From NCBI GenBank assembly GCA_028279705.1, contig JANQNF010000016.1, positions 1 through 64,000 of the forward strand: a stretch of 64,000 nt of DNA, read 5' to 3'. The stretch is from an archaeon. GTDB taxonomy: Archaea > Aenigmatarchaeota > Aenigmatarchaeia > QMZP01 > JAFGSV01. A model generated the notes under the pieces. It saw only the letters and a program-made list of their open reading frames with translations. It searched no databases and was not told where the DNA came from. Shown piece by piece: positions 206 to 45,702 of the stretch; position 1 is the stretch's first letter; every line of letters starts with the position of its first letter. The position numbers and the translations under genes were made by a program.

Positions 206-1054
206 TTAGGACTGTTTGCCTGTTTCTTCCATCTCTAGCTGCTGCTCGTCCTCTTCCAAGTCGATATCGTACCAGTCATCATCGAGCAGACCCATGACAT
301 ACTGGAACGGAGCTAGGTGCTCTTCGATTCTGATTCCACTTCGCAACATGCGCTCGGGATGATACTGAACGCCGCCAACGAGCGTGTTGTTCGGACCATC
401 TTCGTGTGACGGCAACGTGAGCATGATAGCTTCCAGCATCTTTGCTTCTTCGTTGCTGCGTGACCATCCGAGAACCGAATCGTCTTCACGAATCCAGTCA
501 CCCTTACGGGTCTTACCCTTCATCATGAAGCCCTGATGGTGGAAAGAGTTAATGGGAATTACTTTACCCATCAACTGTCTCAGGATGCCACGATTGGTCA
601 TCTTGTGAACCGGGTTGTCGCCGGTAATCTCTTTGCCACCCTGCGAGTGAGCAATGGTAACATCCTTGTACTTATTGATTTCCTGCAACAGCGTGAAACC
701 GTTGAAGATACCAATAAGCTGGAAACCGCGACAGATTCCGAAGATAGGCTTGGCACGACGCAAGAAAGCGTAGTAAAGCTGTTTTTCGAAAACATCGCGT
801 ACAATATTGCAGTTCGTAGCACCTTGATAATCAAGGTCTTCGCCGTACAATAATGGGTTGATATCTTTGCCGCCGCTCAGGAGTAGACCGTCCATGCTAT
901 CCGCGATGGCTTCTACGTCCATTTCTGGGCAAACGATGAATGGGCTTGCGCCCGCTGCGACGACGAAGTTCACGTAGTCCATGTTACACATGGCTCGTGT
1001 CATCTGGGGCTTGCCCATGTACTCCATCTCGCACGTTACTGCGATTCTTTTCAT
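206..1054 (-). CDS. class I glutamine amidotransferase-like protein (peptidase C26 / gamma-glutamyl hydrolase-like)
   Basis: 282 aa ORF; nucleophile elbow GICRGFQL, downstream HHQ and QYHPE motifs typical of type-1 GATase/C26 hydrolases. Confidence 0.65.
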   Translation of the reverse strand: MKRIAVTCEMEYMGKPQMTRAMCNMDYVNFVVAAGASPFIVCPEMDVEAIADSMDGLLLSGGKDINPLLYGEDLDYQGATNCNIVRDVFEKQLYYAFLRRAKPIFGICRGFQLIGIFNGFTLLQEINKYKDVTIAHSQGGKEITGDNPVHKMTNRGILRQLMGKVIPINSFHHQGFMMKGKTRKGDWIREDDSVLGWSRSNEEAKMLEAIMLTLPSHEDGPNNTLVGGVQYHPERMLRSGIRIEEHLAPFQYVMGLLDDDWYDIDLEEDEQQLEMEETGKQS

Positions 1055-1377
1055 TGTTTAGTCGATGGCCTTAAGTGGTGAGAAATTCTCTGTATCATTA
1101 CGTTACCGATGCGGTAACTTAAGCCGCCCTCTTGTGGGGGAACTAGTTTTACTTCGTAACTATTCCAAATTTGACCTTTGGTTATACCAACGATTCGTCC
1201 TATGTCCGCCGATATGCCGCTGAGCGGTCCGCCTGTTTCTATGATAACCATTTCGCCTAAAATTAGTTCGTGTTCAAGCGGAAATGGTTTGGCTACATAG
1301 CTTCTACCGCCAATCCGAATTGTTCCAGTGGCATTGTCGCCTAGGAATTTTTTCAGCGCAAGATTTTTGGTCGACAT
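1051..1377 (-). CDS. hypothetical protein
   Basis: 108 aa ORF, start/stop overlap with neighbours on same strand (operon-like tiling). Confidence 0.45.
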   Translation of the reverse strand: MSTKNLALKKFLGDNATGTIRIGGRSYVAKPFPLEHELILGEMVIIETGGPLSGISADIGRIVGITKGQIWNSYEVKLVPPQEGGLSYRIGNVMIQRISHHLRPSTKQ

Positions 1378-1389
1378 AAAAATAGGGCA

Positions 1390-1761
1390 CTAGGACGTGC
1401 CCTTTGTCTTCGCTTTCTTTACTTTGCGGAAAATACACTGAACCGATGACAGTGGTACGTAAGATGGCTGTCTAGACACAACGCTCTTATTCTGCACCCG
1501 TCCAATGAAAGGCAGAATGTTGATTGTGGTAAAAAACCAATCGTGGAATCCTTGTTCCCAATCGGACTCTGTGATGTATCCGATACGAAACTCGTTCTTG
1601 ATGAAGAATCCGATTACGTCTCCGTCTTCCGGGTCATTCTTCCACTTGTATACAGCCCTATAGACGTTTCCGTCTCCTAGAACTATATACAGCTTTTCTT
1701 TCTTGCAGACCTTGCCTAGAATATTAGCGTAGTGGCCTGCAATTGGGTTTACCTTTGACAT
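1390..1761 (-). CDS. hypothetical protein
   Basis: 123 aa ORF tiled between neighbouring minus-strand genes. Confidence 0.45.
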   Translation of the reverse strand: MSKVNPIAGHYANILGKVCKKEKLYIVLGDGNVYRAVYKWKNDPEDGDVIGFFIKNEFRIGYITESDWEQGFHDWFFTTINILPFIGRVQNKSVVSRQPSYVPLSSVQCIFRKVKKAKTKGTS

Positions 1762-1770
1762 TGTGCTTGT

Positions 1771-3390
1771 TTATACAGCAGCTTCTTCCGCCTGATGCTG
1801 GTCGAGCATGTCTTGCTGGAACTGTCTAAGTTTAGGCGAAAGAACATCAACTTCACCTTTAATTCCATAGCTCGGCTGAACCTTCTGGAAGCTATCGAAT
1901 TCTTCGATGGTTCTCTGAGAGATAGTAGCGAAACTTTCGTTCAGCGGCCTGAAACCTTCGAAGTCAGGGTTGTTGCATCGGCGCAATACGGGGTCAAAGT
2001 ACAACACACGAGCATCTTTGTCATCAGATACTTCCGATGTGTGGAATACCGAAGGACCAGTGAAGCACGCAACACCATCGCGTACTAGAACAGTCTTGCC
2101 CGGCACACTCATCTTTGCCGGAGTGTCGGATAGCTTGCAAACGATTTCATCTTCCGAACCAGCAGCACACAACTTGTATGCGCTTGAGAAGATATCTCGT
2201 GTGGAAGTATTACGCAGCCAGCCACCTACACCAAAGATACCCCAGCCGACGCTGTTGAAACCTTCATCGAATAGACCGCCGAAGACGTCGTCAACCTTGT
2301 GGGGGTTCATCGAGTCGCCCTGAATGAATCGAAGGTTAGTGGCGCTGGCACGCTCTGCTCCATCGTGTAGCCCAGCTTCGTATGCCTGTTGGGCGATAAA
2401 CAAACAGTTCTCGTAGAAGTCTCCGCTGTCGGGCCTAGCTACGATGGTTCCCGCTGCTCGCTGTGCCATGGCTTTCAGATGGTTGCGAACAGCACGGTGG
2501 AAGTTGTAGCAGTCGGCAACATAGCTTGCGATACCGCCATTTGTATCAGCACCAAAGATAGCTTCGTAAGCTTCCTCTTCATTTAGATGGCCCTGAACAA
2601 TACGATGAGCAAGAGCCAAGATGCTAGTTCCTGTCGGACGCTCTGCTCCGCGCTCCATAGCAGCAAAAGCCGCATTGAACGTGTCTGTGCCATGGAACAC
2701 CAGCAGGTGAGCCATGCCGAGCAGCTCAGACTCTTCTGCACAAGAGCTTGCCCGCATACCGAAGTCATGAATGAAGAATCGAGCCATCGCATCGAACTCT
2801 TTGATATCGTCGGTGGTCAACTCATCCATGCCGATGTTGTACTCGTTGTATTTGTTTCTACCAAACTCTTCTCGAATTCGGTTTAACCAATGGCGGCAGA
2901 TGGTGGCACGAGCACTCATGGTGCTAACCATGCCAAGCATGACAGCTTCAATGTGTGCAGCAATTTCGCCAAATCCCTTACCCATTGATTCAACCTGCAC
3001 AACCGGTTCGTACGGGAAGAAAGTCGAACCTTCCGGTAGTGCAGTAATACGAATGGGGAGAAAGCCGTGACATTCATCAACGACTCTTCTCCACGTTTTC
3101 TCAGGGAAATGCAGAGGTCCACCAAAGCTATGGGCTGTCGCCATGAATTCTTTGGCAGCGTCAATGTCTTCGTGAGTAATCCTCTCCCACAGATGACGAC
3201 GAACGAACTCACTCAAGCCGTAGAAGACCATACGACTGTCTTCTGCAACATTAAGCAAATCATCTGAATCTAGAGGAGAAATACGGTTGGTCAGATTGTA
3301 CACTGATTTCTCAACCGCGCGTTCGCCAGCAAACGCTTCACCTGAAATGGTGTAGGCATCTGCCAGCATCGGCAAAGGTACTTTTCTCAT
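1771..3390 (-). CDS. nadV: nicotinamide phosphoribosyltransferase (NAMPT/NadV-like)
   Basis: 539 aa; N-terminal MLADAYTISG-like start, HDFGMR, DSGD and IQGDS motifs as in NAMPT family; SD-like AAGGTAGG upstream. Confidence 0.8.
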   Translation of the reverse strand: MRKVPLPMLADAYTISGEAFAGERAVEKSVYNLTNRISPLDSDDLLNVAEDSRMVFYGLSEFVRRHLWERITHEDIDAAKEFMATAHSFGGPLHFPEKTWRRVVDECHGFLPIRITALPEGSTFFPYEPVVQVESMGKGFGEIAAHIEAVMLGMVSTMSARATICRHWLNRIREEFGRNKYNEYNIGMDELTTDDIKEFDAMARFFIHDFGMRASSCAEESELLGMAHLLVFHGTDTFNAAFAAMERGAERPTGTSILALAHRIVQGHLNEEEAYEAIFGADTNGGIASYVADCYNFHRAVRNHLKAMAQRAAGTIVARPDSGDFYENCLFIAQQAYEAGLHDGAERASATNLRFIQGDSMNPHKVDDVFGGLFDEGFNSVGWGIFGVGGWLRNTSTRDIFSSAYKLCAAGSEDEIVCKLSDTPAKMSVPGKTVLVRDGVACFTGPSVFHTSEVSDDKDARVLYFDPVLRRCNNPDFEGFRPLNESFATISQRTIEEFDSFQKVQPSYGIKGEVDVLSPKLRQFQQDMLDQHQAEEAAV

Positions 3391-3393
3391 AAC

Positions 3394-4488
3394 CTACCTT
3401 TTATCTGTGGACGAGATGCGCTGGAATTTCTCATCCATGGTGGCGAATGAGCACAGCGCACGAAGCGTAGGCTCAATCTTTTCAATGTCAGCTTCGTCAG
3501 TTAGACGATGGAACACCAAGAACTTATTGCCATTTTCTTTCATCGCAGCAATAAAATCTTGATATTCGAAGTTTTCGTAGTACCGTTCCCAGTCTCCGAT
3601 ACGGAGAATAGTATCGAACCCAACTACGATAGTGCTATTGTTTAGCCAGCGAGCTTTGTCGCAGAATCTTGCGTTGTTTGAAACCGCAATCCACTGTACG
3701 GGCTTAAACCCATCAATGGCTCCGACTAACTTTAGATATCTCTCCTGAAATTGAAGAATATCTAGGTCTGCTTTGTCCGCGTTTCGTACGCTCAATTCCA
3801 ACATGACCGACTGGCCGGTAATCTCGTGCGCTTTCTGGGCCATGGCTGCGTGGCCGTCGTGCCACGGATTGAACGACCCCGGGAAAAGAACTACGGGAGC
3901 TAAATCCTTTGGTAGTGCCACGGGTACGAATGAACCGTCGTCAGGTCGTGTGAGATTCATGCGAGAACTGCGTGAATCGAACATTTCCCAAATCAGCGGA
4001 CTAGCTTCGATGTACTGCTTTGTATCGTTGAGCTTATTCATTAGACCCAACACTTCACCTAAAGCTAGGTAGATGTAAGAAGTAACAATCTCTTCTTGCT
4101 CTTCTCTGTAGTAGTCATCGCTGAACTCCCTAGTGTAGTAGAATAGAGAGTTTGTACCGCGAATGGCAATGTGGAAGAAATGGCGGCGACCTTCCCGCTC
4201 GGGACCAGCCTTACGCAGAGTAGCTGTGACACCTACGCCGTAGTCGTTTGAGTCGCAGAGTCGATATGCTTTATCTGCAAGAAGCAAAGCGGCCTCCCGA
4301 GAACAATACTTCTCAGGCTGGCCCGCAAAGCAGTCGAATAGCTCAGAAGCATATGGAACCACAGCGCCATTGAAGACGCTACTAGCGCCACCGGGTGCTA
4401 AAAAGCTATCGATGAACTTAGTGCCGCCTCCTGTAATTGCTACAGAAAACTTCTTACCAGCTTCAATGATTTGTTCGCGCAGATTCAT
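3394..4488 (-). CDS. bifunctional PncC/CinA-C-like domain + NMN adenylyltransferase
   Basis: 364 aa; N-terminal VAITGGG...GASSVFNGAVVPYASE resembles CinA-C/PncC (AESCTGG...GFVTYSNE); C-terminal LFPGSFNPWHDGH is the nucleotidyltransferase (H/T)xGH motif of NMNAT. Confidence 0.75.
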   Translation of the reverse strand: MNLREQIIEAGKKFSVAITGGGTKFIDSFLAPGGASSVFNGAVVPYASELFDCFAGQPEKYCSREAALLLADKAYRLCDSNDYGVGVTATLRKAGPEREGRRHFFHIAIRGTNSLFYYTREFSDDYYREEQEEIVTSYIYLALGEVLGLMNKLNDTKQYIEASPLIWEMFDSRSSRMNLTRPDDGSFVPVALPKDLAPVVLFPGSFNPWHDGHAAMAQKAHEITGQSVMLELSVRNADKADLDILQFQERYLKLVGAIDGFKPVQWIAVSNNARFCDKARWLNNSTIVVGFDTILRIGDWERYYENFEYQDFIAAMKENGNKFLVFHRLTDEADIEKIEPTLRALCSFATMDEKFQRISSTDKR

Positions 4489-5560: not shown

Positions 5561-5953
5561 TGGTGGAGGTGCCGGGAATCGAACCCGGGTGCTGCATAAG
5601 TGTCGGGGTAGGCTCTACACGTTTATCAGGGTCTTTCACACTAACGCAGTTTGGTATACCCTGCAAACTCACTTCGTCGTCCTTAACGTGGACCCATTCG
5701 CCGGTCTATTTCCCGGTGCCATCTGTCTACTTCCAGCGTCACCCGTATTTCTTTTACCTAGGTGATACAGGATACCTAGCGTCGGAACCTTTAGGCTGCG
5801 ACGAGAGCAGGGGTGCCGAGGAGTGCCTCAGCGTCAGCCATGCTCAAAGAGTTGGGAATGCCAACTATTGGTTTAGTCCGTTTTAAGGTAGCCTCGGACC
5901 AACTACCACGTGCTCCTACTTCGTCTTCTTACCAGTCGATACCTTTCACCCCC
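5561..5953 (-). ncRNA. ssrA: tmRNA (SsrA)
   Basis: minus-strand RNA starting GGGGGUGAAAGGUAUCGAC and ending GGUUCGAUUCCCGGCACCUCCACCA (tRNA-like domain); internal tag reading frame GCU GAC ... GUC GCA GCC UAA giving ADAEALLGTPALVAA. Confidence 0.8.
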
Positions 5954-5959
5954 ATGTAT

Positions 5960-6172
5960 CTATACGTCACTTGTTTCTATCAACCATGGCCATAGTAATG
6001 ACTTGAACATCCTGCGCCATCTGGATTCTTTACATCCAATAGTGCTCACGTAGGAAACCCCAGCAACCACGAAATAAGCACCGATAATTGCACACATGAT
6101 TATCGTAAGCCATTCCTGAACAGACAGGCTGTTGTAATTCATGCTATTATTTATGCCACCCCATACGGGCAA
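5960..6172 (-). CDS. small membrane protein
   Basis: 70 aa ORF, one TM helix; weak. Confidence 0.3.
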   Translation of the reverse strand: MPVWGGINNSMNYNSLSVQEWLTIIMCAIIGAYFVVAGVSYVSTIGCKESRWRRMFKSLLWPWLIETSDV

Positions 6173-9815: not shown

Positions 9816-9912
9816 GGGCGCTTAGCGCCTCCACCACTCGGTTTTAAGTTCCGAGAAACTGGGCCTGCCGAATATCGGCAGGGTCCACCACTGAGTTTAT
9901 AGTTCTCAGAAA

Positions 9913-10905
9913 CTACTTGCCGGTGAGCCCGAGTTCGAGCAGTAGCGGCGAGTTGGAAGGCAGAATACGGATGTTGGCGAAGTTCTGCGCGAGAATCGGC
10001 AGGGCTTCGGCCTTCTTGCGACGTTCGTACAGTTCGACGTCGAACGTCATTGCGTCCTTGGCCTCCTGTAGCTTTCTCGCAGCATCGGCTTTAGACTGGG
10101 CGATGGTGACCTGAAGCTGTGCTTCGGCAGCTTGGTCCTCACGACGCTTGTCGTTCGCCAGCTTCTTGTTGGCCTCGGCAACGATTGCAGCTTCAGAGAC
10201 AACTTGGTCGTCGATAGCCGCCTGAATCTTCGCGTTGTCGTAGGTTAGACCCTCGGACGAGCCGAACTGGGTAATGGTGATACCCATGACTTCGTACTCA
10301 GCGATAAGGGCCGTCTTGGCCGCCTTGAAGATGGTCGTCTTGGACTTCTTGCAGTCTTCCAGATTCAGCTTGCCGAAGGCGTCGGATACGAGAGACAGCG
10401 CCGTGCTGCGAATCGGTCCGTCGATGATATCCTCCAACTGCTGACCACCGAAGTAGTACAGGAAGCGGGCGGTGTCCTTTTCGTCGATGCGCGCCTGAAT
10501 GGTCGCACCAACGCCGAAACCAACCGAGTCGAGAGACTCGACGTGTAGCTTCTGGAAGGCTTCGCTTGTGCCGCTGTCCGAATCGTCGGTCCACTCTCTG
10601 TGGACGGGCGCTCGTGAAATCCTGATGACACGAGCGGTAGGAATCCACTCGTAGCTGAACCATGCGCGGCCAGTGCTACGCTTGCGCTGCGGAAGGATGA
10701 TTCGCTTTGCGCCGACCTTCTTCTCTTCAAGAAACTCGATGCTCTCGAACTTGGCCTGACCGCTCTTCGTGTCACCTTCCAGCTTGATGAGGAAAGCGGT
10801 CTCGTCGGGCTCGACTTCGACGGCCTTCTCCACCTGATAGGCACCACAGCCTACCGAAGTCACCGCAAAGATAGCGATGACGAGTGAAAGTAGAAACTTT
10901 CGCAT
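9913..10905 (-). CDS. SPFH/band-7 domain lipoprotein
   Basis: 330 aa; signal peptide with lipobox VGC; central SPFH-like region and long Ala/Glu/Lys-rich coiled coil; locally high GC; AGGAG SD 12 nt upstream. Confidence 0.7.
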   Translation of the reverse strand: MRKFLLSLVIAIFAVTSVGCGAYQVEKAVEVEPDETAFLIKLEGDTKSGQAKFESIEFLEEKKVGAKRIILPQRKRSTGRAWFSYEWIPTARVIRISRAPVHREWTDDSDSGTSEAFQKLHVESLDSVGFGVGATIQARIDEKDTARFLYYFGGQQLEDIIDGPIRSTALSLVSDAFGKLNLEDCKKSKTTIFKAAKTALIAEYEVMGITITQFGSSEGLTYDNAKIQAAIDDQVVSEAAIVAEANKKLANDKRREDQAAEAQLQVTIAQSKADAARKLQEAKDAMTFDVELYERRKKAEALPILAQNFANIRILPSNSPLLLELGLTGK

Positions 10906-10925
10906 TTTTCTGTCTGCTCCTAAAT

Positions 10926-11189
10926 TTAGGCGTTCTTAACGGGAACGAGCTTCCGGTATACGACCGGAGCCCAGAGGCAAATTAGCCAGAGCGCCATCAG
11001 GGCGAGCACGTAGCCCGAGTAATCCCGTGACGCAACACGAGCGACACCATACTCCAAGTCACCACCGTTAAGCTGGTCAACTGCGAGGTCGGCCTGCTCT
11101 TGCGGCATGAAGTTGTTGTACACGCTCATGAAGAATGCCGTAACCAGAACAATGGCTACGGTCCAGAAGATACGTCTGCGATTTGTCAT
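10926..11189 (-). CDS. small membrane protein
   Basis: internal Met start MTNRRRIFW; two hydrophobic helices. Confidence 0.45.
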   Translation of the reverse strand: MTNRRRIFWTVAIVLVTAFFMSVYNNFMPQEQADLAVDQLNGGDLEYGVARVASRDYSGYVLALMALWLICLWAPVVYRKLVPVKNA

Positions 11190-11193
11190 TGTT

Positions 11194-11586
11194 TTAAAAC
11201 TCAACTGGGTCAAAGATACAGACCACATCTCCTCTAGAGATGGTGAATTCTGCAATAGGTAGTTCGGATAGACTGCGGGTATCATCCTTATGAAGGATAG
11301 GAATAGCCCTGACCTTCGTCACTACTTTTTGTCGATACCGACCTTGGAAGTAGCTACTCGTATTAACGATACGAGTGATGATGAGATTAGGCTCACCGTG
11401 CAACTCCACGATATGACCAATCAACTGACCATTACATAGTTCTGCATCAATGAACTCATATATTGGTTCGTAGACTGTCTCACCGAATGGGAGTTGGACG
11501 CGAAAGTCGTCCTTACAAATTGCTCGGTAGCCTAAAGCTTCTTGAATAGACAAAGGCTGTCCGCTTGATGTAATTCTAGGAAGCAT
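11194..11586 (-). CDS. hypothetical protein
   Basis: 130 aa ORF. Confidence 0.5.
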   Translation of the reverse strand: MLPRITSSGQPLSIQEALGYRAICKDDFRVQLPFGETVYEPIYEFIDAELCNGQLIGHIVELHGEPNLIITRIVNTSSYFQGRYRQKVVTKVRAIPILHKDDTRSLSELPIAEFTISRGDVVCIFDPVEF

Positions 11587-13643: not shown

Positions 13644-13961
13644 CTAGTTCTTCTTTAGAATTTGCTGTAGTAACTCCCGATTAGGAGTCAGGGAGTCGAT
13701 ATAAGAAGCCGCGGCGAAGCCGAGGCAAATCAGCACGATAATGACCGCAACAATCTTGATGCCGTTGTAGTCGTTATCGTCGGTTTTCTTTACGATGTAG
13801 TTTGAGAACCACCAACCGAAAATCAGCATGAATACTGCAAAAGCTGCAAATGCAATTGCGGTAGCGATATCCGAAAGGTGCTGTTCTTTGGCTAGGACGT
13901 GCCAACCTGATTCGGCTTTTTCACCAACTTGTCTAAGAAACTCAGCTAGTTTTTCATCCAT
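13644..13961 (-). CDS. membrane protein
   Basis: 105 aa with two TM helices. Confidence 0.45.
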   Translation of the reverse strand: MDEKLAEFLRQVGEKAESGWHVLAKEQHLSDIATAIAFAAFAVFMLIFGWWFSNYIVKKTDDNDYNGIKIVAVIIVLICLGFAAASYIDSLTPNRELLQQILKKN

Positions 13962-15030
13962 CTCTCAGTCTCGAACGGACAACCCGAAAAATGTGATGCC
14001 GAATATCGTGTCCGTCTAGCAGCGAGAACATGGCGCTGCGGAAATCCGGCTCGATGTTTTTGTTCACCTCAAATGCGAAATCGCGGCGGGAGCCGCCAGC
14101 CATATGTTTGACGGACTCCCATGCCGCCATTATCTGTCGCTCGATATCCCACAACATTGCACGAAGCTGAGCGTAGATATCGTCGAACTGTACCTGTAGT
14201 TCCTTCGGAAGTGAGAGTAGAACAGACCTATACTCTCCACCTTCCACCATATCCAGAATCTTTTTCTGGCTGCGCATATCGAGCGCCTTATGGATACGGA
14301 GGTACCACGGGTTCTTGATTTTTACTCGGAAGCCGCAGTCCCAGCGGCATACGAAGCCTTCCGTTCCCTCTTCGAAAGGCATCTCTTCGATTTTATCGTA
14401 GCCGTTCGTCTTGAGAATCATAGTGCCGAACTTCTTCTCATTATAGACGCGACGGGGTTCCATCCCCATCTGGTCGGCTAGAATCGGAATGCGACCGGCA
14501 GGCTGCTCTTGGCCCGTGTGCTTGTTACGCACAGCAAGCAGCCTAAGACCTTCGAAGTCACCGTAGTCTACCACAACCCTGTTGGCCGGGTAGATGATTT
14601 CCGTCATGATGGTATCGTTCGGGTCCATCTTGGAGAAATCATATCGCGGCAGTAGAATCTCTCTGGCATAGTTGGCTTGGTCTGATTCCAAACTGCCCTT
14701 TGTTGAGACATTCCACTGACCGTTGTGGAAGAACACCACGCCCAATGAACCGTCGAGCTTTTCTTCGGCTACATACCGGCCTTCCGGTAGATTCTTGGGT
14801 TCGGTCTCCGACCGCTCAAACAAGTTGAAAAACTTGTCAAAGGGCCGCGCAACGATGTTGCCATCTGCATCTAAGATTAGACCACGAGCCATGCGCGTGG
14901 TGGCATTCCAGATACGGTTGACGACAGCGTTCTGTGTGTACACGTAGATGAATAGGTCACCGAACCGACGTTCGTAGACCAAATCATCCTTAGCGGCGCG
15001 TCGGAGTTGATTTTGGAGAGGTGTGCTCAT
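13954..15030 (-). CDS. ATP-dependent RNA ligase (Rnl-like nucleotidyltransferase)
   Basis: 358 aa; motif I VAEEKLDGS (KxDG), motif IV EGFVCR, motif V KIKNPWY; order typical of RNA/DNA ligase nucleotidyltransferase domain. Confidence 0.75.
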   Translation of the reverse strand: MSTPLQNQLRRAAKDDLVYERRFGDLFIYVYTQNAVVNRIWNATTRMARGLILDADGNIVARPFDKFFNLFERSETEPKNLPEGRYVAEEKLDGSLGVVFFHNGQWNVSTKGSLESDQANYAREILLPRYDFSKMDPNDTIMTEIIYPANRVVVDYGDFEGLRLLAVRNKHTGQEQPAGRIPILADQMGMEPRRVYNEKKFGTMILKTNGYDKIEEMPFEEGTEGFVCRWDCGFRVKIKNPWYLRIHKALDMRSQKKILDMVEGGEYRSVLLSLPKELQVQFDDIYAQLRAMLWDIERQIMAAWESVKHMAGGSRRDFAFEVNKNIEPDFRSAMFSLLDGHDIRHHIFRVVRSRLRDG

Positions 15031-15126
15031 TGTCCAGTTTACGCCAGTATGGATGCATACTTTCCACTACTCGGCGCGTTGCTCTTTTCTTTTGTACTTT
15101 CTCGAAGTACAGGTCTCTATATCTTC

Positions 15127-15366
15127 TTACCACCGAATTGTCACCCTGTGAAGTCTTCCTTTGAAGATTTGCTCGGTGACGTCGAATCCGTCTTCTTTCA
15201 GTTGAGACACAGCGCGAGCACCATGTTTGTACTCGTCACCAAGAAAATCGTGCTCGTAAGTATTACTAGCACTACGACCTTTGCGCAGGCGAAGCTGGTC
15301 GTAGACCTTTTTCATGGCGATTTCAAAACTATCGCCACGCATTTCTGCTGCGGTGATGCGACTCAT
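15127..15366 (-). CDS. hypothetical protein
   Basis: 79 aa; start overlaps stop of upstream peptide gene (ATGA). Confidence 0.45.
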   Translation of the reverse strand: MSRITAAEMRGDSFEIAMKKVYDQLRLRKGRSASNTYEHDFLGDEYKHGARAVSQLKEDGFDVTEQIFKGRLHRVTIRW

Positions 15367-15486
15367 TCGTCACCCTTTTTGGAATTACCACCTTTGATGG
15401 CTTGGATTAGATAAGCCAAAGCTGGAATTCCGAAAAGCGCCATAATGACGATGAACTTGATTAAGTCGTTCATATCTTCAAACATT
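15362..15486 (-). CDS. small hydrophobic peptide (about 41 aa)
   Basis: MFEDMNDLIKFIVIMALFGIPALAYLIQAIKGGNSKKGDE; start overlaps stop of HD/kinase gene (TAATG) and stop overlaps next start; coordinates approximate. Confidence 0.3.
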
Positions 15487-16498
15487 ACGCAGTCCTCGTG
15501 ATTTCTACATCGTCGAAACCTTCTGAAGTCAGTTTCTTTGCGACGTGTTCATCATCTGCAATTTTACCAAGCCCAGCTACCAAGTCTCCATGGAACTGGA
15601 CGAGAACTTTATCTGGAATGAGCAGTCGATGCCGGTGAGGCTTCCCGTGCTCATCTCTATTTCTCTGAATGCACACTTCAAGTGGAGCGTACACCAAGTG
15701 AGCTTTGACGGTGATGCCGGGGAACTCTTCCCTCAACCACTCCAGCATGTCCCGTCTACGCCTGACGGTGTTGTGACAGTTGTCAACGACGATGCCTTGT
15801 CCTCGACCCAGTCCCATTCGAATGTGCTGGCGCTGTACTTTAATTGCCGAGTTTTCCTGATGACGCCATTGACCCGGACCAATACCGAGAACTTCTCGGA
15901 TATCATCCCGGCTTGTACGTTCGAAGCCCGGCTTCCACCACTCACCGTAGTCTCGACTGGCGTCAACGATGGCTTTACTCATGGTGGATTTACCAGCCGC
16001 TTGAATGCCAACCATCAGGATGACCTGATTTCTTCTCGGGTCGAGTTCGTCTAGCGTAGCGTAGATTTCGTCCCACGGCATGTGCTTGCCGTCTTCCCTG
16101 CGTCCCGCGTGGTCGTAGTTGTTGAGTCTCATCAACTCGTCAAACCATTCGTGCTGTTCCAAGTCTTTGCGCTTGTGAGCACGCATTTTGCCCGACGTAT
16201 AATCGTAGGGCTTCATGTGGTTCTCAACCAACCACCTAACTTTAGGCGGAACATCATCGGCAATCATCAGCGCACCGCGATAGGCGTGTTGAGCCCACGC
16301 ACGGGCATCGTTTTTATTCTTGCCGATATCGTGCAGTAGGGATGCGAAGATAACATCCCATGTATCACTAGCTTCGATAGCTAGAGTGGTCACCTGACCC
16401 AGATGGTTTTTCACATTGGGCTCAGGGTGAAACTCTTTTTTAATGTCGGCGTAGTTTGCGGTGTTGTCCACCATACGCCGCAGTCTAGCGGAAATCAT
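15485..16498 (-). CDS. HD-domain phosphohydrolase fused to P-loop polynucleotide kinase-like domain
   Basis: 337 aa; N-terminal HD motif LLHDIGK; C-terminal Walker A GIQAAGKST; an end-healing architecture (phosphoesterase + kinase) next to RNA ligase. Confidence 0.7.
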   Translation of the reverse strand: MISARLRRMVDNTANYADIKKEFHPEPNVKNHLGQVTTLAIEASDTWDVIFASLLHDIGKNKNDARAWAQHAYRGALMIADDVPPKVRWLVENHMKPYDYTSGKMRAHKRKDLEQHEWFDELMRLNNYDHAGRREDGKHMPWDEIYATLDELDPRRNQVILMVGIQAAGKSTMSKAIVDASRDYGEWWKPGFERTSRDDIREVLGIGPGQWRHQENSAIKVQRQHIRMGLGRGQGIVVDNCHNTVRRRRDMLEWLREEFPGITVKAHLVYAPLEVCIQRNRDEHGKPHRHRLLIPDKVLVQFHGDLVAGLGKIADDEHVAKKLTSEGFDDVEITRTA

Positions 16499-16888
16499 CT
16501 AGTCTATTCCTAGCGCATCCCTCTCTTCTTCAGAGAGCTTATCTCTTCCTTGTTTGGCCAGCTTTTGCCGATTTGCTTCTTCGGCTTCTTCTCTTTCTCT
16601 CTTCCTATCGGCTTCTTGGTGCTCGTCCCACCAATCAGCTACTTTGCGCATGTTCTTATCCCTGCCGTCATAGATAATGACTTCGGGTGTGCCCTTACAC
16701 AAGCCGCACAAGGCTGCCGTGATTTCGTCAGCGTGTTCTACGTTACCGTAGTTATCTTTGGCTGCTTTAGCGATAAGTTTCGGTACTGTGACACCTATCT
16801 TAGTTGCCAACAAAACGAAGCATTTGGCAGCCCTTTTACTTTCACGCTCCCTAGCGTTGGGCTCCAAGTAGTCAGAACGGCACGGCAT
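16499..16888 (-). CDS. hypothetical protein
   Basis: 129 aa, acidic/charged C-terminus. Confidence 0.5.
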   Translation of the reverse strand: MPCRSDYLEPNARERESKRAAKCFVLLATKIGVTVPKLIAKAAKDNYGNVEHADEITAALCGLCKGTPEVIIYDGRDKNMRKVADWWDEHQEADRKREREEAEEANRQKLAKQGRDKLSEEERDALGID

Positions 16889-16890
16889 GA

Positions 16891-17826
16891 TTACTCCTTC
16901 GGAGCATGGACTTTATCCATACTGTGTCCAATGCTGGGCTTGGCCAAATGCCCATTGCGTCTCATCCAATCTTGGACGAACCAGAGTTGACCACAACCGC
17001 CGCCGATATCGTCCTGACCGGCAGGGTCGAATACGCGCGTGTTGAAACCCAGAGCACGCATCTTTTCTTGAAAGTCAAGAGCCAACTGTCTCTGTCTTTC
17101 GTTGGCGGCTGCGACATTCTCATCACGCTCGCAAATGACAGAGATGGTTGATTCCCAGTGGTCGGGCGTGAACAGTTCAGCGAGACGCTCAGCGTCATCT
17201 TGACTGTTATTACCATCGTGAACGCAGTAGTTGAAGAACGGCTTGCGTCCGGTGGCCATAGCCCAATACATTCCTTCAATAGCCATTTCACCTAAAGTTA
17301 GTTTAGCTTCGAAAGGAATGAGTTTGTTGCGAGCTTCGTTCGTGGATTCGTGGACCGAGAATTGTAGGCCGATGGTGGGGATAGCTGCCGACAGCAGACA
17401 CAGGTCTTCGTAGATGGGTACTCGTGGCCCACTAGTGCTGATGAGCAGCGCCGCGTTCGGCCACAGCGCACTCAAGTAATGAATGGCCTTCTTCAAGTTA
17501 GGCCAATTCAAAAGCGGCTCACCCATGCTCATGAACATGATTTGTAAGCGTTTGATATCCCGCCCGCTCATGCCCGTGGCTTTGATAAGCTCTTTCGGCT
17601 GGTCGGCAATCTCTACTGCTGACAGATTGCGAACGAAGTTATCCCCAGCACCGCAGAAGCGGCACCCAACAGGACAGCCACTCTGCGTCGAACAGCAGAT
17701 TACCGTCCGTTCTTCATAGGTGGGGTATTTATACAGCACAGACTCAGCAACGGCATTCGGTGCTTCGAACACGTACTTTGCTACGTTCTGGTCTGAACTG
17801 TCAATCCGTCTAATATTAGTCCACAT
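16891..17826 (-). CDS. RlmN/Cfr-like radical SAM RNA methyltransferase
   Basis: start set at MWTNIRR; CSTQSGCPVGCRFCGAG matches RlmN CxxxCxxC radical-SAM cluster; C-terminal GGGCGQLW matches conserved RlmN C-terminal Cys motif. Confidence 0.75.
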   Translation of the reverse strand: MWTNIRRIDSSDQNVAKYVFEAPNAVAESVLYKYPTYEERTVICCSTQSGCPVGCRFCGAGDNFVRNLSAVEIADQPKELIKATGMSGRDIKRLQIMFMSMGEPLLNWPNLKKAIHYLSALWPNAALLISTSGPRVPIYEDLCLLSAAIPTIGLQFSVHESTNEARNKLIPFEAKLTLGEMAIEGMYWAMATGRKPFFNYCVHDGNNSQDDAERLAELFTPDHWESTISVICERDENVAAANERQRQLALDFQEKMRALGFNTRVFDPAGQDDIGGGCGQLWFVQDWMRRNGHLAKPSIGHSMDKVHAPKE

Positions 17827-17866
17827 GTTTCTGGTTCTGGCTGGCGGCGGTCGCCGCTGTGTTGAT

Positions 17867-18082
17867 TCAACAACAACAGTAGATACGCTTCTTGTGACAA
17901 AGCATACACTGTCTAAATTGAGATGGGTTGCATTTAGGGCAAGCGTGGTCAAACGGACCACATACAACGGGTCCACCGCACTTGGGACAGGGCTCTAGTT
18001 CCTTACCATATGTATCTTTATGGTGAGGATAATGGCATTTAGCCGAGTTCTTTTCTCCGGATGATGGTGTCGCCTTTGTCAT
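17867..18082 (-). CDS. Cys-rich small protein
   Basis: 71 aa with multiple CxxC pairs. Confidence 0.35.
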   Translation of the reverse strand: MTKATPSSGEKNSAKCHYPHHKDTYGKELEPCPKCGGPVVCGPFDHACPKCNPSQFRQCMLCHKKRIYCCC

Positions 18083-18479
18083 CTACTCCTCCGGTTCCGT
18101 GTGCTCCACGTCTTCCGCTGGGTTTGTCGTCAGGCTCAAACTTGAACTTCTGTTGTCCTACTTGCCTCTTCCATTCTTCACAGAAACCTAGGAGATTACC
18201 GTTGGTGAATGCACCTTGTAGGCAAGTGACTAGGTTGTTGAGCTTGCGGCGTTTGGTCTGTTCGCTTTCGAACTGACCTTTATATCGAGCAGCTTCGGAC
18301 TTCCACAGGTTGGACTGGCTGATTAATGACAGGCTGTTTTCTTGCAACTCATGAACGCGAGCCTGTAGCTTGTCGCGTGCTATGTCACGCCAGACCGACA
18401 TGACAATCCACCAGCAAATGATGCCGATTACAAAGCCTCCGGCTGCCCAAAGCATTTCAGGATTGGTCGTCATTAGCAA
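18039..18479 (-). CDS. membrane-anchored coiled-coil protein
   Basis: 146 aa; N-terminal TM helix then predicted coiled coil. Confidence 0.45.
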   Translation of the reverse strand: MLMTTNPEMLWAAGGFVIGIICWWIVMSVWRDIARDKLQARVHELQENSLSLISQSNLWKSEAARYKGQFESEQTKRRKLNNLVTCLQGAFTNGNLLGFCEEWKRQVGQQKFKFEPDDKPSGRRGAHGTGGVDDKGDTIIRRKELG

Positions 18480-19018
18480 GCTCCTTCATCTAGGTGCTTT
18501 TTGATTAATGCAAATAAAGTTAGAAGAAGCCGTATTGCAGGGTCTCCATTTTTCAAGTCAAGACCCTTTATCCTGATTTCTGCCATCTCGGCTAGTGCCG
18601 AGCTATGGTCGAGTCTACGGGCGCGCGGGGTGCGTTGTCCGGGACCACGACGTAGATTGGCGATACGGTCCGCTAACTTACAGCACAGGGCTATATAGCT
18701 CTTGTGCCTCATGCTGGAGATTTGCTGCTTTAGCTGCTCATTACGAGGGAGGCGTGGGTCATCTGTCAATTCTGACACATAGCCAGCCACGTCAGTTCCA
18801 AAGTCTCTAGCGATATCGTCATACGTTAGACCGCTATCTTCAATGGAATCGTGTAGCGCACCCGTGCAGAGAGCATCTTCTTCGACGACGCCATGCTCAA
18901 CGAGCACAAACATCACTTCGAAGGTATGAATGAAGTAAACGACCGAGCCGTGCTTTTGCTTCCGGTGTACCCGGGCGCTCAGGTCCATTGCTTCCTTGAT
19001 TCTTGGAGTGATAATCAT
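18473..19018 (-). CDS. HD-domain hydrolase, (p)ppGpp hydrolase-like (SpoT/Mesh1-type)
   Basis: 181 aa; ALHDSIEDSG...FG..VAGYVSELT parallels RelA/SpoT HD domain LLHDVIEDT...FG..VA.LV.GVT. Confidence 0.6.
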   Translation of the reverse strand: MIITPRIKEAMDLSARVHRKQKHGSVVYFIHTFEVMFVLVEHGVVEEDALCTGALHDSIEDSGLTYDDIARDFGTDVAGYVSELTDDPRLPRNEQLKQQISSMRHKSYIALCCKLADRIANLRRGPGQRTPRARRLDHSSALAEMAEIRIKGLDLKNGDPAIRLLLTLFALIKKHLDEGAC

Positions 19019-20381: not shown

Positions 20382-20459
20382 TGGTACCCCATAGGGGAAT
20401 CGAACCCCTCTCTTCAGATTGAAAGTCTGATATCCTAAACCGATAGACGAATGGGGCTT
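20382..20459 (-). tRNA. tRNA-Glu (TTC)
   Basis: minus-strand cloverleaf; anticodon arm UCAGA-CUUUCAA-UCUGA; T-arm AGGGGUUCGAUUCCCCU; encoded CCA. Confidence 0.8.
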
Positions 20460-20461
20460 AT

Positions 20462-20537
20462 TGGTAGGCGATGACGGATTTGAACCGCCGACTTCTTCCT
20501 TGTAAGGGAAGCACTCTAGCCGCTGAGTTAATCGCCC
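20462..20537 (-). tRNA. tRNA-Val (TAC)
   Basis: GGGCGAUUAACUCAGCGGCUAGAGU...CUUCC-CUUACAA-GGAAG...GGCGGUUCAAAUCC...CCUACCA. Confidence 0.8.
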
Positions 20538-22069: not shown

Positions 22070-22145
22070 TGGTACCCCCGGTAGGGTTCGAACCTACGAC
22101 CTTGGGATTAAAAGTCCCCTACTCTACCAACTGAGTTACGGAGGC
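22070..22145 (-). tRNA. tRNA-Lys (TTT)
   Basis: GCCUCCGUAACUCAGUUGGUAGAGU-AGGGGA-CUUUUAA-UCCCA...GGUUCGAACCC...GGUACCA. Confidence 0.8.
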
Positions 22146-22518: not shown

Positions 22519-23034
22519 TAAAGATAGACGATAAGCCGGGTTCTGTCGTGGACAGTCATTAATCTAGGACGCACGTTGCCGTACGCCTCAAGCGGCCTCG
22601 CCTTGCACCTACTAGAAGTTTACCTAGCTGCCTGTGTCACCACAAGCACTGGTGGTCTCTTACACCACCCTTTCACCCTTACCTGAGCCAGTTCACTAAA
22701 CGTCGCCATCTTCTCGACCACTTGAATCGAATGGCTCGTCCAACAATCTGTTCTCCACGTCCTGTAAAAAGGCTCATAGGCGGTCTACTCTCTGTTGCAC
22801 TTGTCCTATCCTCACGGACGGTGGCCGTTAACCACTAGCTTTTCTGTCGTCTCAATTGCAACATCACAATCCAGAAACATACGGCGAGTATGTGGTGATT
22901 TCCCACATGGCCTTCTCCGAAGAAAAGAATTGCAAAGCCAACTAGCCAAAAGATTGTGTCTCGCATAAAAGACGACTCCGGTGCCCGGACTTTCCTCTTG
23001 GGTGTGTCTCCCAAGCGACTGTCTATCTATCTTT
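22519..23034 (-). ncRNA. rnpB: RNase P RNA (bacterial type A, rnpB-like)
   Basis: minus-strand RNA contains GAGGAAAGUCCGGGCACC, GUGCAACAGAGAGUAGACCGCCUAUGAGC, CAGGUAAGGGUGAAAGGGUGGUGUAAGAGACCACC and GACUGUCCACGACAGAACCCGGCUUAUCG, near-identical to E. coli M1 RNA conserved regions; 5' AGAUAGAUAGAC pairs with 3' GUCUAUCU (P1); about 500-nt ORF-free stretch. Confidence 0.8.
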
Positions 23035-27559: not shown

Positions 27560-28141
27560 CTACCTTAGCTCTAAGATTAGGTTGATGGCTTTATCTAGTG
27601 CTTCGTTGTCGAAGCCTCTTTTATAACTAGTGACGATTTGGTTGCTTCTTACCAAACCCATGTCGTGAACATCGTCATCAAGAACGATAAACCTATGTTC
27701 TTCGTCTACTCCATAAAGATAGCTTTTGATTTGCCTACCTCGTGGATGTGTGCTGATTTCCGTCCTGTCTTCCACCACGAAATCGAAGCCCGCTACACCA
27801 ATGAGTTCGGTAAACCTCTTCGGGTCGAAGTATCGACGCCAAGTGCTAGATAGCACAATCTTAACGTCTTCGTAAACTCTCTCACTATAGGCGAAGTGAA
27901 CCAGTTGGTTTAGTCTATCAACACACCTAGGGCACAGAAGGCTAAAACCACCTAGCGGCATATCGCCAGCAAATTTACGAAGAGCGTCACCACAATCTTC
28001 TGTCTCAGGCTCGTGGTTAAGCACTCCATCTACATCTAGAAAGATGAATAGCTTCACTTGTTTCGTTTTTCTCTGCCAATCACGTATGACAGGCACACAA
28101 AAGCAACTACGTCGGAGACATACCCAAAGTGGAGCATCCAA
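27560..28141 (-). CDS. HAD-superfamily phosphatase-like protein
   Basis: 193 aa; motif I FLDVDGVLN (DxDG[TV]); true start may be a downstream GTG. Confidence 0.55.
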   Translation of the reverse strand: MDAPLWVCLRRSCFCVPVIRDWQRKTKQVKLFIFLDVDGVLNHEPETEDCGDALRKFAGDMPLGGFSLLCPRCVDRLNQLVHFAYSERVYEDVKIVLSSTWRRYFDPKRFTELIGVAGFDFVVEDRTEISTHPRGRQIKSYLYGVDEEHRFIVLDDDVHDMGLVRSNQIVTSYKRGFDNEALDKAINLILELR

Positions 28142-28281
28142 ACGGGTACCTCTTTGGTGTTGGGCACGAACTGAATTATACCCAAAGCCATCGTATAGAT
28201 TGCAAAGATTCCTAGGACTGCCACGCTAATACGCCAAGACAGCCACCAGAAACCATACAGGAAGTCTCTAACGATGTTCAT
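28054..28281 (-). CDS. small membrane protein
   Basis: 75 aa, two TM helices; overlaps annotated 5' end of HAD ORF. Confidence 0.35.
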   Translation of the reverse strand: MNIVRDFLYGFWWLSWRISVAVLGIFAIYTMALGIIQFVPNTKEVPVWMLHFGYVSDVVAFVCLSYVIGREKRNK

Positions 28282-28493
28282 ATGTCGCTGTTCAACTCAA
28301 CACAGGCTACGACGCAGTTATCTCCGTACTCTTCGTAGTCTATGAAAGGATGGGTTCCACCATCCATTAACTCAATGTGTTGTGTCTGTGCTAGCTCTTG
28401 TGCTCTTTCCAGAGTCTCCGCATTCACGATGACGATTGTTACGCCGTCTGGCCCGTGACGGTAGTCTCTGTACTTTAGTACAAATGTGCTCAC
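28278..28493 (-). CDS. hypothetical protein
   Basis: 71 aa. Confidence 0.45.
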   Translation of the reverse strand: MSTFVLKYRDYRHGPDGVTIVIVNAETLERAQELAQTQHIELMDGGTHPFIDYEEYGDNCVVACVELNSDI

Positions 28494-29080
28494 TTGAAGT
28501 GCTTTTTAAAGTGAAGCTCCCACAGTGCAGCAGCACAACCGATAATCATCGGCTTGTAATCCCACCATTCACAACTCATGTTGAGTGACATGATGGGACG
28601 AGCTTCGTCTCCTTTATCCCGAACCCATTTAATGAATTCGGGCATGTTGTTGTGCTCGTGACCGCAGAGTCTAATGCGTGTGTCGCCTTCTTCCCACGTG
28701 GGAATGTCTCGCGGTCTGTGTGCGACTACGTACTTAATACCTTCGTGTTCGAACTCGTAGGTTTCGTTCCGTCTAGTCGTCAAGCACTCAAAACCCAAGC
28801 GACTCATTCTCTCTGACCCCCAATCGTGGTTGCCGAGAATCAGTTGCTTGCGGCCATTCAGGCGCTCCATCACTTCGAACATGCGTCCGTAGTTGAAGCA
28901 TACATCACCTAAATGTAGAACAACGTCATCAGGACCAACGGCTTCATTCCAATTGGCAACTAGTGCCTCTGTCATTTCGTTGATATCAGCAAAAGGCCGC
29001 TGACAATAACGAATGATGTTCTTATGGAAGAAATGCGTGTCGCTGACTACAAAGAGCTTCATTACCAGTTGGCGTACCAC
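28490..29080 (-). CDS. calcineurin-like metallophosphoesterase
   Basis: 196 aa; VVSDTHF, LHLGD and GNHDW motifs of the metallophosphatase fold. Confidence 0.7.
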   Translation of the reverse strand: MVRQLVMKLFVVSDTHFFHKNIIRYCQRPFADINEMTEALVANWNEAVGPDDVVLHLGDVCFNYGRMFEVMERLNGRKQLILGNHDWGSERMSRLGFECLTTRRNETYEFEHEGIKYVVAHRPRDIPTWEEGDTRIRLCGHEHNNMPEFIKWVRDKGDEARPIMSLNMSCEWWDYKPMIIGCAAALWELHFKKHFK

Positions 29081-45561: not shown

Positions 45562-45702
45562 TAGCCAATCCCCCACGCGATAGCGACAGACAGCGCGAAA
45601 CCGAAAGTTGCGGCGAGCGCAACCAAGTAGGACAAGCGGTTGATTCTCATTGCACCTATATAGTACCTCATGGGCGCAAGTAGGCAAGCGGGGAAATTAT
45701 TT

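Follow-up and report, generated by a model that had tools for sequence, protein, structure and literature searches.

The 64-kb window analysed here comprises the first 64,000 nucleotides (nt) of contig JANQNF010000016.1, which is 175,863 nt long and represents an uncultivated phage of ~176 kb. On its minus strand, the window carries a complete gene for ribonuclease P (RNase P) RNA, rnpB. The RNA is confirmed as a full-length bacterial type-A RNase P RNA carried by a phage, and the core of the initial annotation, which described such a molecule exceeding the Escherichia coli M1 RNA through expansion segments, is supported. It probably acts as a catalytic RNA of type-A ancestry, working with the host protein RnpA on the tRNAs and the transfer-messenger RNA (tmRNA) of the phage. 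Scanning the whole window against Rfam using cmscan, minus-strand positions 22520-22891 gave the sole match to the covariance model RNaseP_bact_a (RF00010), the model proposed for checking the annotation, at 171.1 bits and an E-value of 1.8e-53. The match spans the full model (positions 1-367) and lies far above chance, the gathering score being 100, and type A is the best Rfam clan member for this RNA. The gene occupies the whole gap between an open reading frame (ORF) stop at 23042 and an ORF start at 22508, both flanking ORFs lying on the same strand. The description of the region as ORF-free holds loosely, as mechanical ORFs of 57-59 amino acids (aa) with TTG starts overlap rnpB. The annotated extent (22519-23034) located the gene and was off by one base, the true limits being 23034-22520.

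The phage context of the gene, also noted in the initial annotation, is evident from its surroundings. PHROGs identified TerL (50747-52615) and portal (52651-54804), and a T4-type RNA ligase 1 (Rnl1), an HD-plus-kinase protein, NAMPT and an NMNAT-like protein are encoded among ~100 small, densely packed ORFs arranged in two strand blocks. Phage hallmark genes are thus present, and the 23 Pfam families found among 91 window ORFs include no ribosomal, core-metabolic or housekeeping genes. The rnpB sequence and its upstream junction are identical in an independent Logan assembly (L003, SRR20820740 contig 179994). The phage itself is distant from described ones, as its TerL is at most 27% identical to that of any INPHARED phage, and blastn of the rnpB locus against INPHARED gave only 33-66-nt fragments and no counterpart.

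The conserved regions (CR) of the RNA, CR-I to CR-V, are all present in order at 22997-22983, 22795-22779, 22683-22651, 22606-22587 and 22557-22529. Four of these (all except 22606-22587) are the conserved blocks listed in the initial annotation, and each is exact on the minus strand, the third reading GGUAAGGGUGAAAGGGUG..GUAAGAGACCACC. P1 closes both ends of the molecule, as had been claimed, and both the P1-P2-P3 closure and the P5/P7 domain junction expected of an RNase P RNA are found. The automated alignment is misleading in this region, as cmscan places the 5′ end at 22891, 143 nt inside the true one, scores the 15-nt CR-I as deleted and breaks the P1, P2 and P5 pairs. The real CR-I lies ~110 nt further upstream and was skipped because of a 131-nt insert. 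Taken at face value, the raw alignment would wrongly imply that the 5′ strand of P4 had been lost. All helices were therefore checked base by base by hand, with position 1 set at 23034, and P4 proved intact. Here, AAG[U]CCGGG pairs at 8/8 positions with CCCGGCUU (22540-22533), retaining both the pseudoknot and the bulged U; loss of the P4 pseudoknot, which the initial annotation had regarded as the sign of a wrong assignment, is not observed. P5 is formed by CACC/GGUG, as in most phage RNAs and most RNAs of the Candidate Phyla Radiation (CPR), while it reads CUCC/GGAG in E. coli, CUUU/AAAG in L092 and CACA/UGUG in L093. The specificity (S-) domain, including P8-P14, CR-II and CR-III, was aligned by cmscan with high posterior probability and zero non-canonical pairs, as was P18, and the GNRA loops L9, L14 and L18 are kept. 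CR-I and CR-III are identical to those of E. coli, and CR-II differs little from its E. coli counterpart. Over 40 nt, the CR-V block shares 97.5% identity with E. coli rnpB (all 5426 genomes searched), a likeness that falls in the most conserved part of the molecule.

Unconstrained folding of the whole molecule gave a minimum free energy (MFE) of -184.8 kcal/mol (z = -4.06). This free fold recovers P3, P8, P9, P12, P13, P14 and P18 as well as two long arms as independent units. A hairpin of UCCGG-GCA-CCGGA followed by the U-rich GUCGUCUUUU resembles a terminator and lies at 22977-22989 (-), overlapping the 5′ strands of P4 and P5 and the start of the insert. Six terminator-like matches were found in the region against 2.5 expected by chance, and no weight is placed on the hairpin since chance expects such matches. 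It could be a chance occurrence, or a folding or attenuation switch.

Selection on the fold was assessed by counting pairs in anchored alignments, P4 being treated as a pseudoknot. The alignment of the catalytic (C-) domain core comprised 21 RNAs, namely those of the window and E. coli, 12 RNAs from phage tRNA arrays and seven of CPR, chlamydial or related cellular type. Across these RNAs, the helices of the window RNA are 94.6% paired, compared to 29-43% when the partners are slid by 1-3 columns. Both sides have changed in 32 of the 39 pairs, and the covariation score is 0.686 versus at most 0.148 in controls, while none of 500 shuffles reached the observed values. The relatedness of the sequences weakens the shuffle control and leaves the slide control unaffected. 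Double changes occur in nine of the ten P1 pairs in the 21 RNAs, all seven P2 pairs covary (alignment A2), and the base pairs of P15 covary as well. P4 is 100% paired in the 21 RNAs, with three covarying pairs, and pairs at 8/8 positions in all 23 RNAs with both strands locatable (L097 was not scorable), displaying four kinds of compensatory double change. This covariation and pairing indicate that the phage copies are constrained ribozyme cores, and the window RNA fits the fold without mismatch. In the C-domain core, the window RNA is closest to the phage copies L076 and L086 (74.6% identity), followed by E. coli (69.7%), and its S-domain is closest to L001/L002 (70-71%), with E. coli and L102 both at 65%.

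The RNA departs from type A in two expansions and one deletion. The initial annotation anticipated expansions; it missed their sites, which are the junction J5/7 and P12, as well as the deletion of P15-P17 and the CCA-binding loop. At J5/7, the position of P5.1 in type B, type-A RNAs are single-stranded, and here the position is occupied by the 131-nt helical arm. A perfect 7-bp helix (GUCGUCU/AGACGAC, 7/7 pairs) closes the arm. Folded with 2 to 4 flanking nt (22844-22980), it reaches -48.3 kcal/mol (z = -4.73), none of 200 shuffles being as stable, and the same fold recurs within the whole-molecule MFE. Shorter hairpins are found at the same site in L087, L090, L095, L097, L094 and L091, natural RNase P RNAs whose P15 is likewise collapsed. 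The insert was also considered as a mobile or repeated element and rejected, as no second copy exists in the window or in 134 loci. It does not belong to a known RNA family such as a small ribozyme or intron domain either, since there was no Rfam match at E ≤ 5. The P12 extension is likewise single copy and, folded alone, has a z-score of only -1.8.

The deletion reduces P15-P16-P17 to a hairpin of GGC (22602-22600), GAG and GCC (22596-22594), in which three nt replace 46 positions of the model. With this collapse, P6 and the CCA-binding L15 loop are gone. P6, P16 and P17, by which type A is told from type B (PMC7191817), are thus absent, and so is the GGU motif of L15 that in type A pairs with the tRNA 3′-CCA, the loop reading GAG without GGU or UGG. 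The architecture as a whole is shared by none of the ~40 other RNase P RNAs examined. In type B RNase P RNA, P5.1 has a stabilising role (PMC5066622). By analogy, the two arms of the window RNA, at J5/7 and P12, would be stabilising expansions and may make up for the loss of P15-P16-P17 and P6.

Table 1 Features of the phage rnpB gene, its window and related loci. Positions refer to the window unless a locus is named.
Feature	Position	Strand	Size, evidence and remarks
Complete RNase P RNA gene (rnpB)	22520-23034	-	515 nt; RF00010; ends set by P1 pairing
P1 5′ strand (AAAGAUAGAU)	23025-23034	-	Pairs with 22520-22529; 10/10 pairs
P2 5′ strand GACAGUC	23017-23023	-	Pairs with 22551-22557 (GACUGUC), as in E. 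coli; 7/7 pairs
P3 short hairpin CUUGGG/CCCAAG	22997-23015	-	7-nt loop; 6/6 pairs; unconstrained folding
CR-I GAGGAAAGUCCGGGC	22983-22997	-	Exact match; P4 5′ strand 22992-22984, bulged U at 22989
P5 5′ strand CACC	22980-22983	-	Pairs with GGUG at 22606-22609; 4/4 pairs
Insert at J5/7 (P5.1 position)	22846-22976	-	131 nt; long irregular arm, branched tip including cUUCGg hairpin
P7 5′ strand, P8 (UAACG loop), P9 (GUGA tetraloop)	22808-22839	-	4/4, 5/5 and 4/4 pairs; high-confidence cmscan alignment
CR-II / J11-12 ACAGAGAGUAGACCGCC	22779-22795	-	T-loop recognition region; exact match, aligned to model consensus
Extended P12	22680-22783	-	~100 nt, ~77 nt inserted relative to Rfam model; cmscan; single long arm in MFE
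CR-III (GGUAAGGGUGAAAGGGUG), P13, P14 (GUGA loop)	22628-22683	-	Exact block; folding recovers both hairpins
P5 3′ strand, J5/15 (GCAAGG), collapsed P15, then GCUUGAG	22587-22609	-	cmscan and sequence
P18 with GCAA (GNRA) tetraloop	22569-22586	-	7 pairs, all with compensatory changes across RNAs
CR-IV/CR-V block GACUGUCCACGACAGAACCCGGCUUAUCG	22529-22557	-	Holds P2 3′ strand and P4 3′ strand (22540-22533); exact match
tRNA-Lys(UUU), encoded CCA	22070-22145	-	Nearest likely substrate; ARAGORN and Rfam, 66.9 bits
tRNA-Val(UAC) and tRNA-Glu(UUC) dimer	20382-20537	-	Val ends in CCA, 4 nt (AUAA) before Glu
tmRNA, encoded CCA	5561-5953	-	RF00023, 88.4 bits; 3′ CCA confirmed
T4-type RNA ligase 1	13954-15030	-
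HD-plus-AAA_33 kinase, Pnkp-like	15485-16498	-
Radical SAM protein	16891-17976	-
HAD_SAK_2 'Swiss Army Knife RNA repair' domain	27560-28141	-
Metallophosphatase	28490-29080	-
L063/L081/L082 rnpB			325 nt; tmRNA and CUA suppressor tRNA (seen on L063); L082 is a 127-kb contig
L076, L083-L086 rnpB			315-324 nt
L102 rnpB, without P18	8629-8905	+	277 nt; 168-kb IMG/VR contig
L103/L113, L121, L128, L106, L133, L127 rnpB			318-435 nt; L128 with 25 tRNAs; L106 a 456-kb contig
L119 rnpB	10596-10802	+	207 nt; 191-kb contig; 118.5 bits; apparently without P12-P14 and 3′ strands of P5-P11
L132 RNase P-like RNA	2248-2468	-	Flush between two tRNAs
L110 RNase P-like RNA	1241-1489	-
L118 RNase P-like RNA	11172-11418	-
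L124 RNase P-like RNA	1748-2055	+

The surface position of the J5/7 arm, its perfect closing helix and its long, near-continuous duplex would also suit an intervening sequence that is cut out after transcription, e.g., by RNase III, leaving a two-piece ribozyme. Fragmenting intervening sequences are known in rRNA, and RNase P RNAs split into two parts reassemble in vitro and retain activity (cf. PMC9740620); this variant is compatible with catalysis. Nevertheless, it appears unlikely, as the shorter CPR-type hairpins at the same site and the P5.1 of type B are retained structural elements, and the stem of the arm has many bulges and mismatches.

Marginally less probable is that a captured host rnpB is decaying into a functionless pseudogene, in which case the J5/7 arm, the lengthened P12 and the missing P15-P17 would be damage. 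Three non-canonical features in one molecule would fit such decay, as would the badly truncated appearance of some other phage copies, e.g., L119, and this copy has no relatives in which purifying selection could be traced. However, random decay would first strike the very elements that are preserved over the 515 nt, all hand-assigned helices being perfect and CR-I to CR-V intact. The changes are instead limited to the periphery, where functional RNase P RNAs also vary (J5/7 hairpin, P12 length, P15-17 collapse), and the arms are well folded, as the z-scores of the J5/7 arm and of the whole-molecule fold show. Furthermore, the gene is embedded in densely coding DNA, from which dead sequence is usually lost.

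The tRNA genes of the window bear on the missing CCA contact. Six tRNAs (Met, Arg-UCU, Arg-CCU, Glu, Val and Lys-UUU) and the tmRNA lie on the same strand as rnpB, dispersed rather than arrayed. The tRNAs score 51-67 bits on the tRNA model, and all six, as well as the tmRNA, encode CCA. Nothing in these scores or ends suggests the non-canonical phage tRNAs that the initial annotation had offered as possible substrates. Its statement that rnpB adjoins a tRNA-Lys is borne out, tRNA-Lys(UUU) being located 375 nt downstream with two small ORFs between. As tRNA-Val ends in CCA only 4 nt before tRNA-Glu, the pair is likely a dicistronic RNase P substrate. The tmRNA received no ARAGORN call and has a large insertion relative to the model. 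A possible tag frame (GGC AUU ... GUC GCA GCC UAA) would end in ...GTPALVAA.

In lineages of cyanobacterial and chloroplast type, tRNA genes generally lack an encoded CCA. Loss of the CCA-binding motif is typical of cyanobacteria and chloroplasts (PMC8172020). The association between motif loss and CCA-less tRNA genes seen in cyanobacteria, plastids and CPR does not hold for phage copies with a collapsed P15. At these loci (the window, L063, L076, L082, L083, L085, L086 and L102), 81 of 84 neighbouring tRNAs encode CCA, compared to 74 of 90 at loci keeping P15-17 and GGU and 4 of 30 at loci with the 'mini' form described below. Since the GGU loop of L15 is gone, any substrate binding has to do without CCA pairing and must rest on contacts with the T-stem-loop, the acceptor stem and between RnpA and the leader. 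It could be speculated that, without the CCA contact, product is released faster or competition from the large pool of mature, CCA-ended tRNAs is avoided.

The initial annotation regarded virus-encoded rnpB as very rare, and this proved overstated. Narrow pattern searches used the collapsed P15 signature GCAAGGC-N3-12-GCCGCTTGAG, later extended with P18 and CCTAGA, and the CR-I plus P5 signature GAGGAAAGTCNGGRCACC. The viral status of the contigs was judged by IMG/VR classification, by the tRNA arrays and tmRNAs they carry and by spot-checking adjacent genes. At least 20 further rnpB genes of 207-435 nt were found within tRNA arrays on viral or phage-like contigs, demonstrating that phage rnpB recurs. 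Matches to RF00010 at or above the gathering score inside tRNA arrays occur on IMG/VR contigs of 20-456 kb, some of which also carry a tmRNA or a CCA-adding enzyme. In L102, a tmRNA and nine tRNAs lie upstream of rnpB, and a CCA-adding enzyme (PolyA_pol, HD and tRNA_NucTran2_2 domains; 9897-11210, +) ~1 kb downstream, forming a compact tRNA-maturation island. L063 encodes, in the same array as rnpB and tmRNA, a suppressor tRNA with anticodon CUA (6001-6074, +; labelled 'Pyl' by ARAGORN), suggesting a stop-codon-recoded phage. In addition, L110, L118, L124 and L132 gave significant matches below the gathering score (60-72 bits, E-values of 1e-16 to 1e-20, 221-308 nt) at huge-phage loci. Together with L119, these short RNase P-like RNAs of 207-308 nt sit on phage contigs of 56-343 kb and are candidates for natural 'mini' RNase P RNAs, or for remnants of decayed genes.

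The searches also retrieved genes of other origin. About a dozen IMG/VR matches were canonical host rnpB genes beside predicted prophages, without nearby tRNAs. Cellular genes with a collapsed P15 came from Chlamydiia, several Patescibacteria/CPR and two contigs with bacterial neighbours (RNase J, RecJ), and several of their RNAs have an 18-57-nt hairpin directly after the 5′ strand of P5, the site of the window insert. This cellular group also includes a Chloroflexota metagenome-assembled genome (L096), which matched the pattern and gave no RF00010 match at the gathering score. L098 (CAZQBL010000006.1) and L091 encode a 507-nt RNase P RNA with UGGU in a collapsed P15 loop, a J5/7 hairpin and a large insertion before CR-V; its 32-kb contig is binned as 'uncultured Gammaproteobacteria', and the neighbours in L091 (RecJ, sugar transferase) look cellular. 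A CPR ancestry or host was considered on account of the shared J5/7 hairpin and collapsed P15. It was rejected as the likeliest origin, as CPR RNAs are 56-64% identical to the window core, less than E. coli and other phage copies, and the shared features look convergent in this sequence comparison.

How such an RNA may act can be outlined from its surroundings. The rnpB gene would be transcribed within a long minus-strand early or middle transcript and then excised. The RNA is predicted to fold as a two-domain ribozyme, with a C-domain containing the P4 pseudoknot and an S-domain containing the CR-II/CR-III module that reads the T-loop, and to assemble with host RnpA, the host protein being the presumed partner because no RnpA is encoded in the window. 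Bacterial RnpA proteins are interchangeable between species, and the CR-IV/V surface is conserved in the window RNA. tmRNA is a classical RNase P substrate. Once assembled, the holoenzyme would trim the 5′ leaders of the phage pre-tRNAs, the Val-AUAA-Glu pair among them, and of the phage tmRNA. Polycistronic pre-tRNAs depend on RNase P for their separation, for which it is essential (PMC7049720), and tmRNA acquires its mature 5′ end through RNase P as well (PMC3985003). In this way, tRNA maturation may be sustained during infection alongside the tRNA-repair genes of the phage, with the J5/7 arm and the long P12 serving as putative peripheral stabilisers. It is thus plausible, judged from sequence, that the phage supplies its own tRNA-processing ribozyme.

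Several points weigh against such a working phage ribozyme. The terminator-like hairpin is present in the MFE fold and could sequester the 5′ strand of P4. The L15 loop and P6/P16/P17 are missing although every window tRNA encodes CCA, and in E. coli, losing the contact between L15 and CCA weakens both catalysis and the fidelity of cleavage-site selection. RnpA (PF00825, RNR motif) had no match in 91 batch-scanned ORFs and 10 large ORFs of the 64-kb window, and no sigma-70-like promoter was found directly upstream of rnpB. Finally, no sister phage was found, as a neighbouring 128-aa protein is a singleton in a set of 5.8 billion proteins and absent from IMG/VR. DUF7873 had no IMG/VR relatives, and no IMG/VR sequence matched a pattern that places CR-I and CR-II at a distance of 165-195 nt. 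The J5/7 insert and the P12 extension are therefore without comparative support and could be neutral or harmful.

Some of these points would suit a decoy or regulator that soaks up host RnpA or pre-tRNAs to stop host tRNA maturation, or redirects the RNase P protein to phage substrates. The CR-IV/V region that contacts RnpA hardly differs from the enterobacterial sequence, the window ORFs yielded no phage RnpA, and the missing CCA-binding loop would weaken normal handling of substrates. Still, a decoy is quite improbable, as it has no need for a whole catalytic core, a bulged U, the T-loop reader of the S-domain or the tertiary-contact loops, yet all are kept. In addition, P4 itself is under compensatory evolution in related phage copies, and the phage needs its own tRNAs processed. 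That the gene is not phage-borne at all, being a host rnpB beside a prophage, an assembly chimera or an attP-type fragment of a host gene, might be suggested by the canonical host genes retrieved next to predicted prophages and by a Logan contig that ends inside rnpB, as possible at conserved repeats, but is largely refuted and has next to no probability, since same-strand phage-type ORFs closely border the gene over tens of kb in either direction, the Logan contig is independent evidence for the upstream junction and almost the entire RNA, the gene is complete rather than a 3′ fragment, the match to E. coli rnpB covers only 40 nt, no deposited phage or genome matches over the length of rnpB, and no integrase was found in the window ORF scans. 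The Logan contig ends within the CR-V block (the last 40 nt of rnpB), a stretch nearly identical to enterobacterial rnpB, and conserved ribozyme sequence probably fragments metagenome assemblies there.

The genes around rnpB include a set for RNA repair and tRNA maintenance, which flanks the region at 13954-19018 and 27560-29080 (-) (Table 1), and an HD_4 domain was also detected among the window ORFs. tRNA-Lys(UUU), the tRNA nearest to rnpB, is a classical target of anticodon nucleases. Speculatively, these neighbours would suit a module for maintaining a working tRNA pool in infected cells, perhaps in the face of host defences targeting tRNA. A cluster for NAD+ salvage is found at 206-4488 (-), comprising NAMPT (1771-3390), a CinA-like and cytidylyltransferase (NMNAT-like) protein (3394-4488) and a peptidase C26/GATase (206-1054), and resembles the NAD+ modules described in gut jumbo phages (PMC11662467). 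Gene orientation switches at ~45400-45700, where the GC skew reverses as well. The minus-strand block (1-45.3 kb) carries early, metabolic and RNA genes, and the plus-strand block (45.7-64 kb) a sigma-like factor, terminase, portal and structural genes.

Only two ribozymes are universal to cellular life. RNase P is one of them, and to our knowledge its RNA has so far been treated as a cellular or organellar gene. A search of the full-text literature, which did not cover subscription-only papers, found no report of a phage-encoded RNase P RNA. The family itself is known; what appears to be new is its viral location, the architecture described here, and the recurrence and structural range of the phage copies. 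Phage rnpB, which the retrieved loci indicate for many tRNA-rich phages besides this one, adds a 5′-processing ribozyme to the translation parts supplied by phages, i.e., tRNAs, tmRNA, CCA-adding enzyme and tRNA repair. The phage copies also form a natural series of deletions and expansions, with losses of P15-17, P18 or P12-14 and a giant arm gained at the P5.1 position, which can be used to probe which peripheral elements are needed and how a ribozyme lacking the CCA contact handles CCA-bearing substrates. In addition, annotation pipelines and Rfam alignments mishandle such genes, as seen from the misplaced 5′ end and the CR-I scored as deleted. As a tentative proposal, more doubtful than the catalytic role of the window RNA, phage RNase P ribozymes may constitute a widespread, unrecognised class, ranging from the expanded 515 nt to 'mini' forms of ~210-250 nt in huge phages. 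Many would be 'CCA-blind' through deletion of L15 despite CCA-bearing tRNAs, freeing the maturation of phage tRNAs and tmRNA from the host ribozyme and possibly being phage-selective. The J5/7 arm would then be a functional module, either substituting for P15-17/P6 or docking a phage factor, and not neutral baggage.

Compared to known systems, the window RNA shares with the type-A M1 RNA of E. coli the core of P1-P5, P7-P14, the base of P15, P18, CR-I to CR-V and the P4 pseudoknot with its bulged U. It differs in being phage-encoded, in its length (515 versus 377 nt), in the 131-nt J5/7 arm, the ~100-nt P12 and the shortened P3, and in lacking P16, P17, P6 and the GGU loop of L15. An extra helix between P5 and P7 without P6/P16/P17 is the defining arrangement of type B (PMC7191817, PMC5066622), and the window RNA likewise has a helix at this site and none of these three helices, as in Bacillus. 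However, it lacks P10.1, P15.1 and P15.2 and keeps P13 and P14, which sets it apart from type B. Its arm is far longer than P5.1, the docking partner L15.1 is absent, and its sequence clearly descends from type A. Diverged CPR RNase P RNAs without P16/P17 and the CCA-binding motif have already been documented (Lui et al. 2021, PMC8172020). Like the window RNA, those of CPR/Patescibacteria and Chlamydiia have a collapsed P15, no P16/P17, often no CCA motif, and extended helices, and in CPR-type L087, L090, L094, L095 and L097 a hairpin directly follows the 5′ strand of P5. These genes are cellular, though (L090 adjoins RNase J), and their J5/7 hairpins measure 18-57 nt, in addition to the lower core identity given above. 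The other phage rnpB genes are also type-A-derived and located beside tRNAs, sometimes with a tmRNA, and have the CACC/GGUG P5 in common with it; many combine a collapsed P15 with CCA-encoding tRNAs. They are, however, compact (207-435 nt) and found in dense tRNA arrays, and none has the 131-nt J5/7 arm or the long P12.

Huge phages carry tRNAs, tmRNA and SmpB (PMC7162821), and the survey describing them makes no mention of RNase P. Theta ribozymes process the 3′ trailers of phage tRNAs, 5′ maturation there being performed by RNase P, for which a phage-encoded copy was not proposed (PMC10879173). The logic is the same, in that phages bring their own supply for tRNAs and translation, while here the 5′-end ribozyme itself is phage-encoded. 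Finally, organellar rnpB genes are known from plastids, the cyanelle and jakobid mitochondria (PMC4264200, PMC3590771). Like the phage copy, they are kept in small non-cellular genomes together with tRNAs and sometimes tmRNA, and they often have a reduced periphery and depend on protein. However, organellar genes descend vertically from the endosymbiont and are usually AU-rich and reduced, whereas the copy in the window is viral and expanded.

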